Positions 16,961 to 60,934 of a DNA stretch of 64,000 nt are shown here, piece after piece. The position numbers were made by a program, and so were the translations under genes. The DNA comes from Eledone cirrhosa (lineage: Eukaryota). Under the pieces are notes generated by a model. That model had not been told where the DNA came from. It was given only the letters and a program-made list of their open reading frames with translations, and did no database searches. Within the stretch, counting starts at the first letter, position 1; the number at the start of each line of letters is the position of its first letter. The stretch lies in assembly GCA_964016885.1 (NCBI GenBank), contig OZ024740.1:285820001-285884000 (forward strand), given 5' to 3'.

Positions 16961-17569
16961 TCATTTATTTCTGAATGGCTTGATATTTCTTGTATTGATT
17001 TCTCAAGCACAAGCCTGTTTTCTACAAGAAACCTAGTGCTCTTAGGTATCTAGCATGCCATCTAGAACGGAAACTGACAGACTGTACTAACCCATCTTTC
17101 CCATGCCAGCATGGGAAACAGACTTCTGAAAAAGTTGATGATGATGATGGAGCGACAGACTCCTAGTCTTCATTAAGGCATCTCTCTAGAAGGTCACCCT
17201 GATATAAAACCTGCGACTTCATTTGCATCCAATGATTTAGATCAGTGCTACTTTTTGGGTAACTGCATTTGATGTTCAGAGAGCGTGATTGGAGCCGTGC
17301 AAAGCCTTTCCTCACTTACAAAAGCTTCAAGCATAGGCACCGCTTGATGTGACATTTTTTGTGATGCATGGTATTGCTGGCCATAGGCAAGTCCCTAGCA
17401 GGACTAAAAAGGACTAAAAAGCCATGTCCATGATGCTCATGCTTAAGTATCAAGCAATGGCATAACTTGAAAACAAGTTGCAGCCATCATTATATACATT
17501 ATATACATATACATATACATTATATACATATACATATACATATAAATACGTTTACCAATATATATATCA

Positions 17570-18847
17570 GGCAAAAGTACCACAGACGCTCTTTTCATTG
17601 TACGACAACTACAGGAGAAGTACCTAGCTAAAAGTAAACCCCTATACTTAGCTTTCGTCGACTTGGAGAAAGCCTTCGACAGAGTCCCCCGTTCCATTAT
17701 CTGGTGGTCTCTTAGAAAACTAGGTGTTGACGAATGGCTTGTGAGAGCTATACAAGCCATGTATAAAGAAACAGTCCGTAAGGTTAGAATTAACGACGAA
17801 TATAGTGAAGAGTTTAGCGTAAAAGTTGGTGTCCATCAGGGCTCTGTTCTTAGCCCCCTACTATTTATTATTGCCCTTCAGGCTATAACAGAGGAGTTCA
17901 AGACCGGCTGCCCATGGGAACTCCTATACGCAGATGATCTAACGCTCATAGCTGAATCAATGACCGAACTAGAGAAGAAATTCCAAACATGGAAGCACGG
18001 CCTAGAATCAAAAGGCCTTAAAATTAACCTGGCTAAGACTAAAGTTCTAGTTTGTAGGAAAGAAAATAAGGCGGCAGTCCCATCTGGAAAATGGCCATGC
18101 TCAGTGTGTAGGAAAGGCGTAGGTAGAAACTCCATTTTATGTCCCAAATGCAAAGTATGGGGGCATAAAAGATGTAGTGGGATCACAGGTAAGCTAACTA
18201 AGAACATAGATTTTACATGTGGCCGGTGCTCTGGTGCAATAAGTAGCAGCAAGTGCCCACAAAATACTAGCTCCTTCAACTGCGCAGAGGGTTCTATAGA
18301 AATAGTGGACAGCTTCCGTTACCTGGGCGACAAAATCAGCAGTGGGGGAGGGTGCTCTGAAAGTACAGTAGCTAGAGTCAGAACTGGATGGAAAAAGTTC
18401 AGAGAGCTTATACCACTATTAGCCGCTAGAGGGTTCTCCCTAAAAATGAAAGGCAGGTTATACGATGCCTGCATACGAACAGCAATGCTGCATGGCAGTG
18501 AGACCTGGGCATTGTGTGCAGAGGACATACGCAGTCTAGAGAGGAACGAAGCTTGCATGCTCCGCTGGATGTGCAATAGTAATATACGTGAACGGCAAAG
18601 CATAAACGAACTAAGGAAAAAATTAGAAATAAGAGGGATCAGATGTTGTTTACTCGAGAGAAGGCTACGTTGGTACGGTCACATGATGCGCATGAAAGAC
18701 GACAGCTGTATAACAAAGTGCAGGGCAATAAAGATAGACGGTAGCCACGGAGTAGGCAGACCCAGAAAAACATGGGACGAGCTGATAAATTCCGACCTCA
18801 CACGCTTACACCTCTCCAAGACAATGTCACTGGACCGAGACCTTTGA
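17570..18847 (+). pseudogene. RTE-type reverse transcriptase (partial ORF) with internal PHD-like zinc finger
   Basis: Open frame GKSTTDALF..LAFVDLEKAFDRV, GVHQGSVLSPLLF, LLYADDL, KINLAKTKV, FRYLG, MLHGSETW, RRLRWYGH, GRPRKTW. TGA at 18845 is likely a mutated TGG, since paralogs read DRDLWRHAV, giving an ancestral stop at 18883. Confidence 0.92.
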
Positions 18848-19930: not shown

Positions 19931-19983
<53 letters not shown>

Positions 19984-20014
19984 AAGTGGTAACACAACAG
20001 TTAGTTCACCATAC

Positions 20015-20055
20015 CGAGAACAATTGTTTCACCTTAGCAGCAGATCTTCAGCTCG
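20015..20055 (-). ncRNA. Minimal type I hammerhead ribozyme motif (CUGAAGA core)
   Basis: CGAG-CUGAAGA-UCUGCUGCUAAGGU-GAAAC-AAUU-GUU/CUCG: 4-bp stem I, both core boxes, palindromic stem III ACAAUUGU, GUU cleavage triplet. Stem II is weak. Confidence 0.65.
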
Positions 20056-20127
20056 CAATGGTCATGGTTATACGGAACAGGAAGGACATGCGGTTGTTCT
20101 TCCTGTTCCGTATAACCATGACCAGTA

Positions 20128-20165
20128 TGAGCTGAAGATCCGCTAAGGTGAAACAATTGTTGTCG
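20128..20165 (+). ncRNA. Mirror hammerhead motif with disrupted stem I
   Basis: UGAG-CUGAAGA-UCCGCUAAGGU-GAAAC-AAUU-GUU/GUCG; the first stem I pair is a G.G mismatch. Confidence 0.45.
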
Positions 20166-20273
20166 GTATGGTGAACTAACTGTTGTGTTACCACTTCTAC
20201 CTAACTCGTCCCATGGACTGAGTGCTCTACCACTATGGATATTACCTTCCAGTGTTCTACCCCTATCTCTCTC

Positions 20274-31125: not shown

Positions 31126-32129
31126 AAACTTAAGCCAAATGAGTTGATATTTTATCTTTATTGTTTATCTTCATTGAGATGTCGAATATTAGAGACAAAT
31201 AACTTTTAATTGATATGATGATGATGTTGATATATAGTACAATTTGTTATATTTAAAAAAGATTTGATTCACTTTCCATGTTAGTGGGTTGGATTACCCT
31301 AGTTATCAATGTACATTCATATAGTTTATACTTGACAGCTATTACCACATATGTGATAAAGTGAGATTGGCACTCGTTTTCTAATTTGATGATCTAAGAA
31401 GACTATTGTAATATGTATTGTAGGAGGGAGGAGAGATAGAAGTGTTGACACAATTTCAACTTCCTTTTCAATGAATTTAAAATATCAAACAGTTTATTTC
31501 AGTAAGATGTCTAATCAAAAGATTATTTCTCTGTACTGCTGAAATAACAGTTCAACATGTATATACGCATCTGTGTAAGCTTCCTCTTGTGTGTATTTGC
31601 ATACATGTGGGTGTGTTTATGTGTGTTTTAGTATGTGAAAATTTATGTGATTTTTATAGCTGGTTGAATCTTTACAGCAAGTATATTTATCCCCATACCA
31701 ATAATTCAGGACCCTACCACCACCACCACCATTGTAACTAACACTAACACCATTCTCTCCCTTATTATCACCATAATCTCCTAGTCTGTTTTCTACTTGA
31801 AGTGGTGAGAGCTGATCTCAAATCACTGAACCTTACGAAGGGGAACATGAATGAATGCAACAAGTGAAGGGAAGTTGTTTTAGAGAAGACTCATCTTACA
31901 CATGTAGTTGGTGATGATGATGATTCAATGGTATATTTCCATCATCGTATATCTATTACGGAGAACAAATTATATGCAAAATGTCATGTTTTGGTGATAC
32001 TCAGTGCCATACTTGCTCAACATTTTTTGTTTGTTATTTGGAGGAAGGTTCTTTTTTTATTCCTTTCACCATATTGCAGTTGCACTTTCGGTGGTCTTAC
32101 TTGTACCAGTCACCAATCTTTGGTGACTA

Positions 32130-32484
32130 GCGTGGATGGAGTTCCACTGAAGCAGGTGGAGAAGTTCAAGTATCTTGGGACCGTGTTCAGAAGTGATGGG
32201 AGGCAAGAGGGTGAATTAAGTGTAAAAATTGAAGGAGCTGGTACAGTAATGCACCAGCTTCAACATTCGGTAATCAGAAGAAGGGAGGTAGACGTAAAAG
32301 TCAAACTCGCTATCTTCAATTCATTATTCGCGCCAACCCTTACCTATGGTCATGAATCTTGGGTAATGACTGAAAGAATACGATCGCGAATACAAGCTGC
32401 TGAAATGGGATTCCTCCAAAAGGTCTTTGGAGTAATATTACTTGATAGAGTGCATAGGTTGGAGATTGGAGAGTCACTCCAGAT
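32130..32484 (+). mobile_element. RTE LINE RT C-terminal fragment (second RTE family)
   Basis: VDGVPLKQVEKFKYLG...KLAIFNSLFAPTLTYGHESWVMTERIRSRIQAAEMGFL within ORF 31928-32575. Confidence 0.85.
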
Positions 32485-32698
32485 GACTCCAGGAGTACTT
32501 GTACTCAAATGCCTGAATTCTTCATTCCATGTTAGCTGTGAGAGTCCAACTCTCATACCCATACAAAAGGATTGAAATCATCAAGGACTTGTATAATTTG
32601 AGCTTTGTTGGAAAACTCACGGAGTTACTTTTCCATATGATATTCTACTTTTCCATGGCAGAAGTGCTCAGGCCAAGTCTTGTCAGTATCTCCATTAC
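32485..32698 (-). mobile_element. RTE LINE RT fragment, antisense (third RTE family)
   Basis: Minus strand reads EILTRLGLSTSAMEK*NIIWKSNSVSFPTKLKLYKSLMISILLYGYESWTLTANME*RIQAFEYKYSW. Confidence 0.8.
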
Positions 32699-45959: not shown

Positions 45960-46311
45960 TTTCTTTTGTATTTCAGTAGCAGATTATTAATATGAAGTTA
46001 GTATTTCATTCTGCCTCTATGGAAAATTTCCCCACTTATATTCATCCAGGCTAATATTTCATCTGATCGAACTTGACAAATGAGATATTCAAGTATTTGA
46101 TGAAGCAAAGTACCAACTTTGTGTCTGCTGGGCTAGATTATCCATTAAGGAATAAGATATATTGTATTCCTCATTCTAAACAATTTCTTTTTTTTTTTTT
46201 ACAGACATTAAATATGGGAGGGAAGGGGCACCATAATCTTTTATGTGGTTTTGGCCTCAAAAGGATTTAAACCACTCTTTAGTGTGTATATGTATATGTT
46301 TGTATGTGTGT

Positions 46312-46355
<44 letters not shown>

Positions 46356-46447
46356 CTGGGCAGTTATATCCGTAGTTGGTAGAGCACTCAGTCCAAACGA
46401 TGAGTTCAGTATCGAGTTAGTTCCACAACAAATTAGCAAACCATAAA

Positions 46448-46484
46448 CGAGGACGCGCGTTTCACCAGATGGATTTTCAACCCG
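46448..46484 (-). ncRNA. Minimal type I hammerhead motif, U3-A8 core variant
   Basis: CGGG-UUGAAAA-U-CCA-UC-UGG-U-GAAAC-GCGC-GUC/CUCG: 4-bp stem I including one G.U, 3-bp stem II, palindromic stem III ACGCGCGU, GUC triplet. Confidence 0.65.
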
Positions 46485-46537
46485 TGTATGGCTGCAGTGA
46501 GAACAGATTATATTTCTGTTCTCACTGCAGCCATACA

Positions 46538-46574
46538 CAGATTGAAAATCTGTCCAGTGAAACATGCGTCCTCG
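46538..46574 (+). ncRNA. Mirror hammerhead motif (U3-A8), stem I decayed
   Basis: CAGA-UUGAAAA-U-CUG-UC-CAG-U-GAAAC-AUGC-GUC/CUCG. Confidence 0.4.
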
Positions 46575-46626
46575 ATTATGGTTTGCTAATTTGTTGTGGA
46601 ACTAACTATATATATATATATATATA

Positions 46627-46840
46627 TAGTAATAATAATAAATTTGAAGACTAAAATCCAAAGAGGGCTCGATAAGGATAAATATATATCAAATATATAA
46701 GAACCGTAGAGCAAATATTTATTAAAATAACAGATTAAAGTTTGAGCGAAGAATCGCTGCTTTCACCCTTAACGGGATCTTCAGAAGATCCTGTTAAGGG
46801 TGAAAGCAGCGATTCTTTGGTTAAACTTTAATCTATTTTA

Positions 46841-46847
<7 letters not shown>
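46627..46847. mobile_element. PLE-like element ending in a fold-back (46715-46847) centred on a hammerhead CUGAAGA box
   Basis: Apex GGATCTTC-A-GAAGATCC. The minus arm reads CUGAAGA-U-CCC-GUUAA-GGG-U-GAAA followed downstream by AATAAA. Flanked by (TA)n. Confidence 0.65.
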
Positions 46848-46908
<61 letters not shown>

Positions 46909-57877: not shown

Positions 57878-58197
57878 GACCTCCCATGGGTACAAGCTGA
57901 AGCATATAGACAATATGTCCCCACTCCCGCCACCGCAAGGTGGTCGTGGAGGTACCACGGCAAAAAAGCACCCAGCCCACACTGTAAAGTGGACGTGTAG
58001 GCGCCACGAAAAAGCACCCAGCACTCACTGTAAATGAGGTTGGTGTTAGGAAGGGCATCCAGCTGTAGAAATCAAGCCAAATCAGTTCCTGTATGAGCAA
58101 GGCATGGTCAGCCGACCAGACACTGCCCACAACAGGACAACCCTTCTAACCCATGCTAGCGTGGAAGAACGGACGTAAAATGGTAATGATGATGATG
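57878..58197 (+). mobile_element. RTE 3' UTR copy
   Basis: Near-identical to 45655-45926; ends GGACGTAAAATGGTAATGATGATGAT. Confidence 0.75.
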
Positions 58198-59550
58198 AAG
58201 ATATTGGCCAACCCAAGACACTTACCCAAAGTACTGCACATTGAGATTGAATCTAGGAACCATGTGGTTGCAAAACAGGCTTATTTCCTACAGCCATCTT
58301 AATGCACCCATTGTTGGGTACACCCCCTATTTTAATCGATTACTTTTTCTTTGTGTTTTTATTTACAAGATCTAAATTATCATTATCCATTTCATGCCAA
58401 GGGACATGGCAACCCCCTAGTGCTGGTAACATGATGAAATGCACTCACCACACTGTGTAAAGTGGTTGATGTTTGGACAAGTATGCAGCTGTAGAACCCC
58501 CCCCCCCCCCAAGAATGTACTTGAGTCCAACGCGCCAAGGAGAGTAGTAAATCAGATACAGTCTGTAATTACCCATCCAACTCATTCTGACATAGAAGAA
58601 AAGATGTAAAATAATGATACTGATGAGGATGATGATGATGATGAACATAGTCACTTTTAATACAGTTGTTTTCCTTCTAGCAATAGAAATGGATATATTT
58701 TGTCTAGCTTTAACTAAATTATGAAATAATATCCATTAGCTGTTCTTCAGCATACAATGGGGGGTTTATCCAAGTTTCTAGGACAATTTTGTTGTGTAGG
58801 ATAATTTAGTTTTGTTTTCAATGTATTATTTCTACTTAATACAATTCATTTGTACTACTACAAACATCAATTTGTTAGGTTTTGCTGTTGGTGTCCTTAA
58901 AAGAATCACATGTTCAACAAACAAGAATTGATTTATATTTTGCTTTCTCTTTGATGTAACATTTATCTAGTTTCCATCTTTTTTTTTATAAATTTTGATA
59001 TGCATGTACGTATGTTTGCAAGCATTTTTGTGTGAATATTTTCACATGAACTTATGTATGTATGTATGTATGTATGTATGTGTGTGTGTGTGTATATATA
59101 TATGAAAATTGAATTGGATTAGTAGCTTTCACTGTAGTTTTGACTGCAGAAAATGGTGATGTCCATTCTGGAAGCTTATATGCCCTGTTATTATTAGACT
59201 ATTTTCTGTAGTAGAAAATATGGCGAAAGTTACTAATTCAATTCAGTTTTCAAATTCCATCGGCATCTTCTAATCATGCGATGTGTGTGTGTATGTGTGT
59301 ATATATATATAGAGAGGGGGGGGGAGCAAATAGGTGTTGTCCTCAAGAAGGGCATCTGACTAAACCACTGGCATAAAAAGTTCTGTATAAACCATGTCAG
59401 CATGGAAAACAGAAAAAAGATGATGCTATAAATACACACATATATACATGTATGCTCATGTGTATACATAACACACACATATATACATGTATGCTCATGT
59501 GTATACATAACACACACACGCACAGATATGACCTCTAATAATATACGGTA

Positions 59551-59890
59551 TCATCATCACTGTTTTACATCCGTTCTTCCACGCTAGCATGGGTTAGACG
59601 GGTTGTCCTGTTGTGGGCAGTGTCTGGTCGGCTGACCATGCCTTGCTCATACAGGAACTGATCTGGCTTGATTTCTACAGCTGGATGCCCTTCCTAACAC
59701 CAACCTCATTTACAGTGTGGGCTGGGTGCTTTTTTGCCGTGGCATCTCCACGACCACCTTGCTGTGGGGGGAGGGTGTGGGGGCATATTGTCTATATGCT
59801 TCAGCTTGTACCCATGGGAGGTCGGGTACTCTGTATTACTGCGTGACGCCAGAGGTCACGGTCGTGTGTCATTGCCTTTGAGAGGTGTAA
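59551..59890 (-). mobile_element. RTE LINE 3' end
   Basis: Minus strand LHLSKAMTHDRDLWRHAVIQSTRPP matches LHLSKTMSLDRDL of the 17570 RT, followed by the shared 3' UTR. Confidence 0.8.
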
Positions 59891-60505
59891 TATATATATA
59901 TATATATACACATATATAATTTACTTTTCATTTGTACAGATTCAATACCTATATAGATATTGAAGCATTTGTACAAGTGTAAAACAAATTATGTGTGTGT
60001 ATATATATGTATGTATATATATATATTTGTGTGTGTATTTGTACTTGTAGTTATCTTCACCATAACTACATTTGCTGTGAGAAAAATAAAAATAAACAAA
60101 CAGCAAATCTATTGATAACTTTGGAATAAATTCTGTATCTTTTATTAGTAACAGTTCCTGGCTCTGTGCTCTATTTCTTCTTTGCATTGGTTTTCAATTC
60201 ATTTAGTTTTCCTAATTAATTCCTTCACCTCAACAGGTATATAATCCGGGAATGTTAATTAATGCCTGATGAGCAATACAATTGTGGCACACAAGGGAAA
60301 TTGTACTGAGATGCCATTAAAACTCAGACTATTCTTGTTATTATTAACATTGGAGAAGCCTGTTTTTATATCTAATGGATTACATATCCACCAAGCAACA
60401 ACATTGCAGTGTTTTCATTGCTTCATTGTAGAGTATGAAATATATACTATATTCTATTTGCAGAAGCCATCTTCTTTTCTATCCCTACTCATTTTCATTC
60501 ATATA

Positions 60506-60548
<43 letters not shown>

Positions 60549-60689
60549 ATATATATATATATATATATATGTGTGTGTTAGTGTATATATATATAATGAA
60601 TGTATATATGTGTATATGTAAGGAAAAAAAAAAGGATGAAATCGAAAATGCAACTGGAGTCTTTTTTTTTTTAAATATATTTATTTGGT

Positions 60690-60729
60690 TCCTTTACCGC
60701 TTTCGCAGTTCTTGTGCTTTTCAAAACTA
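60690..60729 (-). ncRNA. Mirror hammerhead motif (UUGAAAA core), stems I and III partly decayed
   Basis: UAGUU-UUGAAAA-GCA-CAAGAAC-UGC-GAAAG-CG-GUA/AAGGA. Confidence 0.4.
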
Positions 60730-60769
60730 GAATCGAGATGGAGGGTTTGTGTTTCCTCCATCTCAATTC

Positions 60770-60809
60770 TACTTTTGAAAGGCACAAGAACTGCGAAACC
60801 GGTAAAGTA
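60770..60809 (+). ncRNA. Minimal type I hammerhead motif, U3-A8 variant (A9G in this arm)
   Basis: UACUU-UUGAAAG-GCA-CAAGAAC-UGC-GAAAC-CG-GUA/AAGUA: 5-bp stem I, 3-bp stem II, palindromic ACCGGU, followed within ~5 nt by AATAAA. Confidence 0.6.
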
Positions 60810-60934
60810 ACCAAATAAATATATTTAAAAAAAAAGACTCCGGTTGCATTTTCGATTTCATCTTTTTTTTCCTTATACCTTCACTCGTGTAAGACACCTC
60901 GTTTTTTTCATTTTGTAAAAAAAAACCTCATTTT

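Follow-up and report, generated by a model that had tools for sequence, protein, structure and literature searches.

Hammerhead motifs in Penelope-like elements

The section of PMC3088659 considered here describes natural hammerhead ribozymes with a U3-A8 pair, with U10.1-U11.1, with a stem II of two pairs or with an insertion after A6 and, citing its ref. 32, reports that swaps of the 3-8 pair, U3-A8 included, are active in vitro. In the part of PMC4209133 used here, Cervera and De la Pena (2014) report about 1,300 minimal hammerheads with U3-A8 in the Cercyon elements of Schistosoma mansoni. A dimer model has been proposed for minimal hammerheads in pseudo-LTR (pLTR) elements, with low activity in vitro and an unproven role in vivo (PMC4209133, PMC6765202, in the parts considered). 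With regard to the Hydra clade of Penelope-like elements, the portion of Craig et al. (2021, PMC8557442) covered here includes an octopus member whose hammerhead is different, and retrozymes have been linked to pLTRs in a preprint of which the same holds (bioRxiv 10.64898/2026.07.22.740005).

A Hydra element with U3-A8 was not found described in the open-access papers to which the search was confined; the supplements of PMC4209133 and PMC3088659 may list similar motifs. What is new here is U3-A8 in the Hydra clade; its occurrence in natural hammerheads and in Schistosoma Penelope elements was already known. The locus described below matters little by itself, and its interest lies in family A, which extends the U3-A8 hammerhead variant to this clade.

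Layout of the locus

The locus lies in a 64,000-nucleotide stretch of the Eledone cirrhosa genome (assembly GCA_964016885.1, contig OZ024740.1, positions 285,820,001 to 285,884,000, forward strand), hereafter the window, in whose coordinates positions are given. The interval 46352..46607 is mostly an ordinary transposon remnant, a Penelope-like end beside an upside-down copy of itself. It is one of the hundreds of decaying copies of a family that we call A, and the element at 19982, with which it is compared, is a member of a younger sister family, B.

46300..46351, no strand: (TA)n/(TG)n microsatellite target, left side, from the sequence (Hydra elements insert in (TA)n according to the part of PMC8557442 considered)
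46352..46414, minus strand: 3' tail (extension) of the Penelope-like element, a unique 63-nt stretch, called the head in the first-pass annotation; other loci have the tail at one end
46415..46507, minus strand: 5'-truncated pLTR end of family A (Hydra-type Penelope-like element), left arm, within family A at 100/99 on the pLTR tree
46441..46491, minus strand: predicted type I minimal hammerhead of the left arm
46508..46514, no strand: 7-nt AT spacer at the inversion junction
46515..46607, plus strand: inverted, 5'-truncated, tail-less copy of the same pLTR end, right arm, from the arm comparison
46531..46581, plus strand: decayed second hammerhead motif, right arm, with intact core and damaged stems
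46608..46629, no strand: (TA)n target, right side, from the sequence
19982..20262, plus strand: comparison element of sister family B (C3-G8 core), laid out alike but oriented the other way (inverted arm, sense arm, tail)

The inverted repeat recognised by the first-pass annotation is real, the two arms differing at 9 of 93 nt across the spacer, and its caveat about CpG decay holds, 7 of the 9 being CpG-type. Sequence comparison also bears out the leader and arm ends that it had found common to this element and the one at 19982. Its reading of 46352-46414 as a head had to be given up, the stretch being the 3' tail of a minus-strand element. It coincides with the beginning of the 5' leader of the following unit and lacks a final ~5 nt that other copies have; we equate it with the tail, or extension, of PMC8557442 (as described in the part considered) because in a near-full family B copy (L104) the tail sequence continues into the 5' UTR and the ATG of the ORF.

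Relatives were sought in the 3.0-Gb genome, and 92 matches were obtained from the best 40 of 1,835 candidates. Among 28 distinct fetched loci, 13 carry both orientations and 15 show no second orientation; the tail stands at one end only in 12 of the 13, the length of the inverted arm varies from locus to locus, and insertion in (TA)n is seen at this locus and at the ends of most of the 28. Since so many copies have no inverted arm, the hairpin at 46352..46607 is a by-product of insertion (integration), and it corresponds to the inverted 5'-truncated copy of PMC8557442.

Hammerhead-like motifs in the two arms

On its minus strand the left arm reads CGGG, UUGAAAA, U-CC-AUCU-GG-U, GAA, ACGCGCGU, C and CUCG, and its parts, followed by the core of the right arm, are placed as follows.

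46491-46486, minus strand: 5' strand of distal helix I
46484-46481, minus strand: proximal stem I
46480-46474, minus strand: core UUGAAAA, U3 at 46480 and A8 at 46475
46473-46464, minus strand: U.U-flanked 2-bp stem II with a 4-nt loop
46463-46461, minus strand: GAA
46460-46453, minus strand: palindromic stem III
46452, minus strand: C17, followed by the 3' strands at 46451-46441
46542-46548, plus strand: core UUGAAAA of the right arm, U3 at 46542, intact

UUGAAAA had been reported for both arms, with CUGAAGA in both arms of the 19982 element, and we find the same, namely a hammerhead-type motif whose 3-8 pair is swapped, U3-A8 here against C3-G8 there. The 3-8 pair is of Watson-Crick type in both arms, and the motif has GAA. 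The stems given with them, stem III ACGCGCGU and stem I CGGG/CUCG, hold for the left arm and not for the right, which reads ACAUGCGU and CAGA/CUCG; the former is no palindrome (predicted self-duplex -4.5 kcal/mol, vs -13.3 for the left arm), and the latter keeps 2 of 4 pairs. In family A, ACGCGCGU is the commonest form of stem III (11 of 68 arms), and most of the others are CpG-decayed versions. A distal helix I, in which CCAU pairs with AUGG, had been overlooked; its fifth pair is A-U in family A, U-A or C-G in a subfamily A3 and G.U in part of family B, with some mismatches.

No hammerhead family appears among the 52 Rfam covariance-model matches at E<=1 within the window. The motif is not a chance arrangement, since the three patterns used genome-wide gave 249, 120 and 2,139 exact matches and reversed-pattern controls gave 0.

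Like the Cercyon hammerheads, as described in the part of PMC4209133 considered, the motif is of type I, lies in a pLTR and joins a palindromic stem III, implying a dimer, to a U3-A8 core; as there, copies are mostly single and dispersed, with opposite-strand pairs, which in that report lie 100-700 bp apart. It differs in helix II, which in the Cercyon motifs is 7-8 bp long, includes G10.1-C11.1 and bulges after A9, and here has 2 bp flanked by U.U, so that the G10.1-C11.1 pair and long helix II are absent, and in helix I, which is longer and interrupted. The features described in the PMC3088659 section are not combined there in one motif, whereas U3-A8, U.U and a 2-bp stem II occur here together.

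A member of the Hydra clade

Longer copies run upstream, on the motif strand, into an RT/GIY-YIG coding frame. Four extended family A loci (L097-L100) align to aa 84-704 of a 713-aa relative, with identities of 31-45%. A family B fragment had retrieved this relative within a set of 64 proteins of ~700-900 aa; DK[TS] occurs in all 64, RW[KR] in 56, CxCX5C in 46 and N..CxH in 62. The CxCX5C linker is present in one family A locus (L100) and in three of family B (L103, L109 and L111); RWR and DKT, for the RWK and DKT of the clade, are found in the family B copy L104, the fetched family A copies being truncated or broken at that region, and CxxC..E..N..CxH, with no CCHH, occurs in family B and subfamily A3 copies. 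The endonuclease DNA of family A groups with B and A3 sequences at 98-100 support. L104 is near-full, covering aa 1-707, with same-strand pLTR motifs 2,537 bp apart around its ORF and an N-terminus that resembles the printed sequence of Hydra-1_Obim when compared by eye. Every copy seen is broken; the organisation is that of a single ORF, with RT and then a C-terminal GIY-YIG, in a unit of <3 kb. The four long family A loci examined yielded no intact ORF and no tandem copy, a tandem direct pLTR being seen in family B only (L104), and Pfam gave nothing above cut-off for six ORF pieces. Judged by its diagnostic motifs, and with published reference proteins compared by eye, the element belongs to the Hydra clade.

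Several further traits agree with this clade as described in the part of PMC8557442 considered. The C-terminal GIY-YIG without CCHH, CxCX5C and, in family B, DKT are shared with Hydra-1_Obim, Hydra-1_Ajap and Penelope-13_HM, and the unit of <3 kb, the (TA)n targets, the 3' hammerhead, in which U.U often flanks stem II (U-flanked stem II being common in its hammerhead table) and the tail at one end are likewise typical; an inverted 5'-truncated copy with a second hammerhead is reported for Penelope-13_HM. The differences concern the hammerhead and the tail. In its File S2, all 26 Hydra rows (25 families) have C3..G8, the form that the descriptor used there favours, whereas A and A3 have U3-A8; stem II has 2 bp here and 3-7 in its table; stem III is here an even 8-nt palindrome, unlike those Hydra elements; and the tail measures ~63-68 nt instead of 30-40. 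The motifs of families A and B, and of a third family C described below, are absent from the supplement of PMC8557442 as far as it was covered, so these look like families other than Hydra-1_Obim. Non-LTR retrozymes, as presented in the portions considered of PMC7229834 and bioRxiv 10.64898/2026.07.22.740005, resemble the element in being non-coding, with a type I hammerhead and an origin from Penelope-like pLTRs, and differ in consisting of head-to-tail tandem hammerhead units, whereas a single, dispersed, truncated sense unit with an inverted arm is found here.

State of the 3-8 pair across copies

U3-A8 is a feature of the lineage, with 249 exact motif matches genome-wide. Among family A arms collected by similarity (68 in all, seven of them with an 8-nt core), 52 of the 61 seven-nt cores are U3-A8, 4 are U-C, 3 C-A, 1 A-A, 1 U-U and none C-G, whereas 60 of 61 family B arms are C3-G8. 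An A-type pattern left open at 3 and 8 gave 120 matches; the 100 listed comprise 12 eight-nt and 88 seven-nt cores, the latter divided into 74 U-A, 7 U-C, 2 G-A, 2 A-A, 1 C-A, 1 U-G and 1 C-G. The other arm of the sole C3-G8 case among these 88 (L210) has A at both positions. A mixed pattern gave 2,139 matches, and among the 100 listed the 89 with a five-nt loop are 80 C-G, 4 U-G, 1 C-A and 4 other, with no U-A. In a joint alignment of 98 arms we counted 57 U-A, 32 C-G, 1 U-G and 8 other, and stem III pairs swap as well. Subfamily A3 combines B-like flanks with U3-A8. U3.G8 is found in only 6 exact four-nt-loop motifs genome-wide, against 249 for U3-A8, the two patterns differing slightly.

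The proposal that positions 3 and 8 covary is thus upheld between families, which a double change separates, and not within a family, where the two sites change singly, as in decay. The accompanying remark that CUGANGA-only searches miss the U3-A8 motifs of this lineage is correct, and such searches undercount the Penelope-element ribozymes of this genome; an unrelated family in the same window, D, is also U3-A8.

Departures from the pair are not all isolated: U3-C8, U3.G8 and 8-nt cores recur among copies, and strict 3-8 pairing is possibly not required for amplification because mismatched cores occur more than once. The change of A8 to C arises in different subfamilies (at least 7 of 88 rows; L005, L025, L076, in one arm only, L093 and L205-L209) and is an unexplained mutational hot spot. 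The 8-nt cores, in which a G or U is added near position 7, form a subfamily nested in family A (L013, L017, L023, L028, L030, L197-L204) and are like the low-activity A6a insertion in the section of PMC3088659 considered. Three A3-type arms (L236, L240 and L252; also L231, L247 and L248) share an upstream variant together with G8, two of them clearly with U3, and such U3.G8 arms are a possible small source sublineage.

How often the pair switched

In a tree of the endonuclease region, A and A3 form one clade (98/100); a clade of A3 with B is not rejected (p-AU 0.22), so that two switches of the 3-8 pair are possible. The pLTR tree, built with the core left out on 48 rows, of which 7 are mis-anchored, separates B from A3 plus A at 100/100 and places the window copy within A; family B contains two of the U3.G8 motifs on this tree, and A3 a further U3.G8 arm. 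C-G is likely the ancestral state, and one switch the simplest history, because all the Hydra rows of File S2 (in the part of PMC8557442 considered) are C3..G8; on this sequence comparison, U3-A8 likely arose once, in the parent lineage. The branch that carries the switch has ~0.2-0.24 changes per site, and both changes are transitions (C>U and G>A), which give a valid pair automatically. In the 98 arms, the pair count reflects a single event passed down to many copies, and pairs with double changes (7) are no more numerous than in shuffles (484 of 500 as high), a control that ignores relatedness. A CUGAAGA at 46784, considered as a replicate of C3-G8, was not counted because its family (C) reads CAGAAGA; it is an inversion-junction artefact.

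The copies could also be read as a graded fossil series, from C3-G8 in family B through a U3.G8 wobble sublineage to U3-A8 in A3 and A. According to this doubtful scheme, the swap would have followed a compensatory path through a wobble intermediate and been paid for by a stronger stem III palindrome and a re-paired distal helix I, giving an active minimal dimeric hammerhead. The predicted energies of the dimer palindrome (-13.3 kcal/mol in the U3-A8 form vs -6.4) go in this direction, and the series itself depends on three or four copies. Of the arms with the upstream variant, three in number, two are absent from the pLTR tree and one is mis-anchored in it.

Selection or decay

The first-pass annotation had suggested selection for ribozyme structure. 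This is retained for the past, in the source elements, from lineage differences that preserve structure, and abandoned for the genomic copies, in which none is seen after insertion. Families A and B agree in every other core letter while their flanks have diverged, and two stem III pairs change on both sides; N7 is variable in family B (A 39, G 20 of 61). Transversions in family A number 27/272 in loop 2 and 5/272 in stem II, cells that count copies and not events, and variation common to both arms of an insertion reaches 17/64 in loop 2, partly by parallel CpG decay, against 1/176 in the core. Taken together, the changes at the 3-8 pair, at two stem III pairs and at the distal helix I pair, with a variable N7 and loop 2, likely indicate past selection in the source elements.

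When the two arms of 16 loci are compared, the core differs at 17/176 and the flank at 49/351 positions (p=0.21), and A/T sites give 13/144 and 21/239 (p=1.0). CpG columns are changed in 33% of cases among family A arms, and 6 of 68 arms pass the full-structure filter. Because cores decay like flanks and mismatches are single, selection therefore likely acted on past active elements and not on the copy at 46352..46607. If departures from the most frequent letters of the family are counted instead, the core comes out somewhat better preserved (38/748 changed, against 124/1491 in the flank; p=0.006), with p=0.046 for G sites, p=0.043 for transversions and p=0.5 for A/T sites; this difference may reflect constraint in the source lineage, search bias or weak selection on some copies.

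Proposed origin and alternative readings

At a probability of roughly 0.85, we regard the locus as a Hydra-type Penelope-like retrotransposon truncated to its 3' end, with an inverted copy of that end; the motif was likely a dimer-dependent self-cleaving ribozyme in the active parent, its 3-8 pair likely went from C-G to U-A in a single switch, and the present copy is likely inert. In this model, with a layout borrowed from family B, a full pLTR-ORF-pLTR transcript would carry two same-strand hammerhead motifs, and these would dimerise by way of the stem III palindrome, with cleavage after position 17; the unit-length RNA so released would serve target-primed reverse transcription into (TA)n, and early termination with the inverted 5' copy typical of such elements would leave the hairpin. 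At 46352..46607 the two motifs are on opposite strands, with none paired on the same strand as in L104, so no dimer would form within one RNA. The predicted folds give -159 kcal/mol for the hairpin of a read-through RNA and -6.7 for the hammerhead monomer, which is itself not the minimum-energy fold (-8.7). A 93-bp duplex would accordingly hide the motif in read-through RNA, and the left-arm hammerhead could fold only in a transcript that begins within the spacer and encounters another copy in trans. Since the motifs are opposed, the right one is broken and the read-through RNA is a duplex, the model predicts no activity at the locus. The sister motifs with C3-G8 and U3-A8 make a matched natural pair for asking whether weak dimeric ribozymes cleave.

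The same retroelement origin could be accepted while denying the ribozyme: the U3-A8 motif would have lost cleavage or never needed it, the swap would amount to a pair of neutral transitions along a long branch, and the motif would have been kept by descent or for another role such as protein binding. We consider this unlikely. In its favour, only one switch is supported, on the branch given above, the two changes restore pairing of their own accord, and mismatched or lengthened cores were amplified or recurred; three features expected to weaken the ribozyme, U3-A8, U10.1.U11.1 and a 2-bp stem II, are stacked, such motifs have low activity in vitro according to the part of PMC4209133 considered, which leaves room for other functions, and the sister Hydra-type families C and E have non-canonical cores. 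Neutral drift accounts poorly, however, for all other core letters being the same in A and B while the flanks diverged, for two stem III pairs and the distal helix I pair changing on both sides and for the variable sites being N7 and loop 2; moreover, U3-A8 is reported to be active in vitro (PMC3088659, in the section considered, citing its ref. 32).

The arms might instead have been kept for the structure of the hairpin itself, as a mobile hairpin element, a host-adopted ribozyme or a small-RNA precursor. The fold is very stable, similar hairpins recur genome-wide and the left arm belongs to the small set of intact motifs (6/68, a count biased by its use as the query), but we disfavour this reading as very improbable: the inverted-arm length varies by locus and 15 of 28 loci have no second orientation, the arm differences are mostly CpG decay without compensation, the right-arm motif is broken, and the hairpin excludes the hammerhead fold. 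Matches to Rfam miRNA families in the window are hairpin or microsatellite matches far under gathering scores (47.4 vs 90 bits). Scarcely credible is the suggestion of a plus-strand SINE, with the shared 'head' as its Pol III promoter, derived from a tRNA. What we take to be a D-loop-like stretch on the plus strand near 46372-46385 speaks for it; ARAGORN found no tRNA gene in any of the 8 loci tested, B-box-like letters are not kept in family B, copies truncate away from the tail end and extend into an ORF on the minus strand, and in L104 the ORF has this stretch as its 5' leader. The tRNA-derived head was thus rejected in favour of an element tail and leader.

Neighbouring and related elements

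Adjoining the locus, 46630-46848 holds a young Hydra-type insertion of family C, with the same layout of inverted copy and tail. Its core reads CAGAAGA, with A at position 4, followed by U-CCC..GGG-U-GAAA, and there is no clear stem III palindrome. A further Hydra-type family, E (L167-L196), carries CUGAUGA-like letters downstream of the ORF in most displayed copies, with no canonical GAAA half; CCAUAC/CCAUGC just before its core is common to families A and B.

The unrelated hairpin family D, at 60664-60860, has U3-A8, a stem II closed by G-C and an ACCGGU palindrome. Its U3-A8 is of possibly independent origin, and its hammerhead status is less clean because position 9 varies (A 21, G 8 and C 1 of 32 arms, 2 being shorter). 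A longer family D copy (L115) has upstream what we presume to be a Neptune-type GIY-YIG.

Elsewhere in the window, 17546-18847 and 31868-32575, both on the plus strand, are presumably LINE-type reverse transcriptase fragments. Two inverted copies, 58009-58193 and 59550-59734, are 96% alike and belong to a common interspersed repeat ending in (ATG)n, with no hammerhead core seen in either; 59896-60012 is an imperfect AT-rich hairpin between (TA)n tracts and possibly another inverted retroelement end. In one copy of family B, the two inverted ends flank a fragment of a different non-LTR reverse transcriptase (L101:923-3288).

The tail also contains a stem-loop, at 46383-46405 (minus strand) and 20204-20224 (plus strand), whose stem is constant between families and whose 3-nt loop is UUU in 35, CAU in 21 and other in 16 of 72 cases. 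It is only a lead, because the search motif fixed most of the stem letters, and represents a candidate recognition signal for the element's protein.
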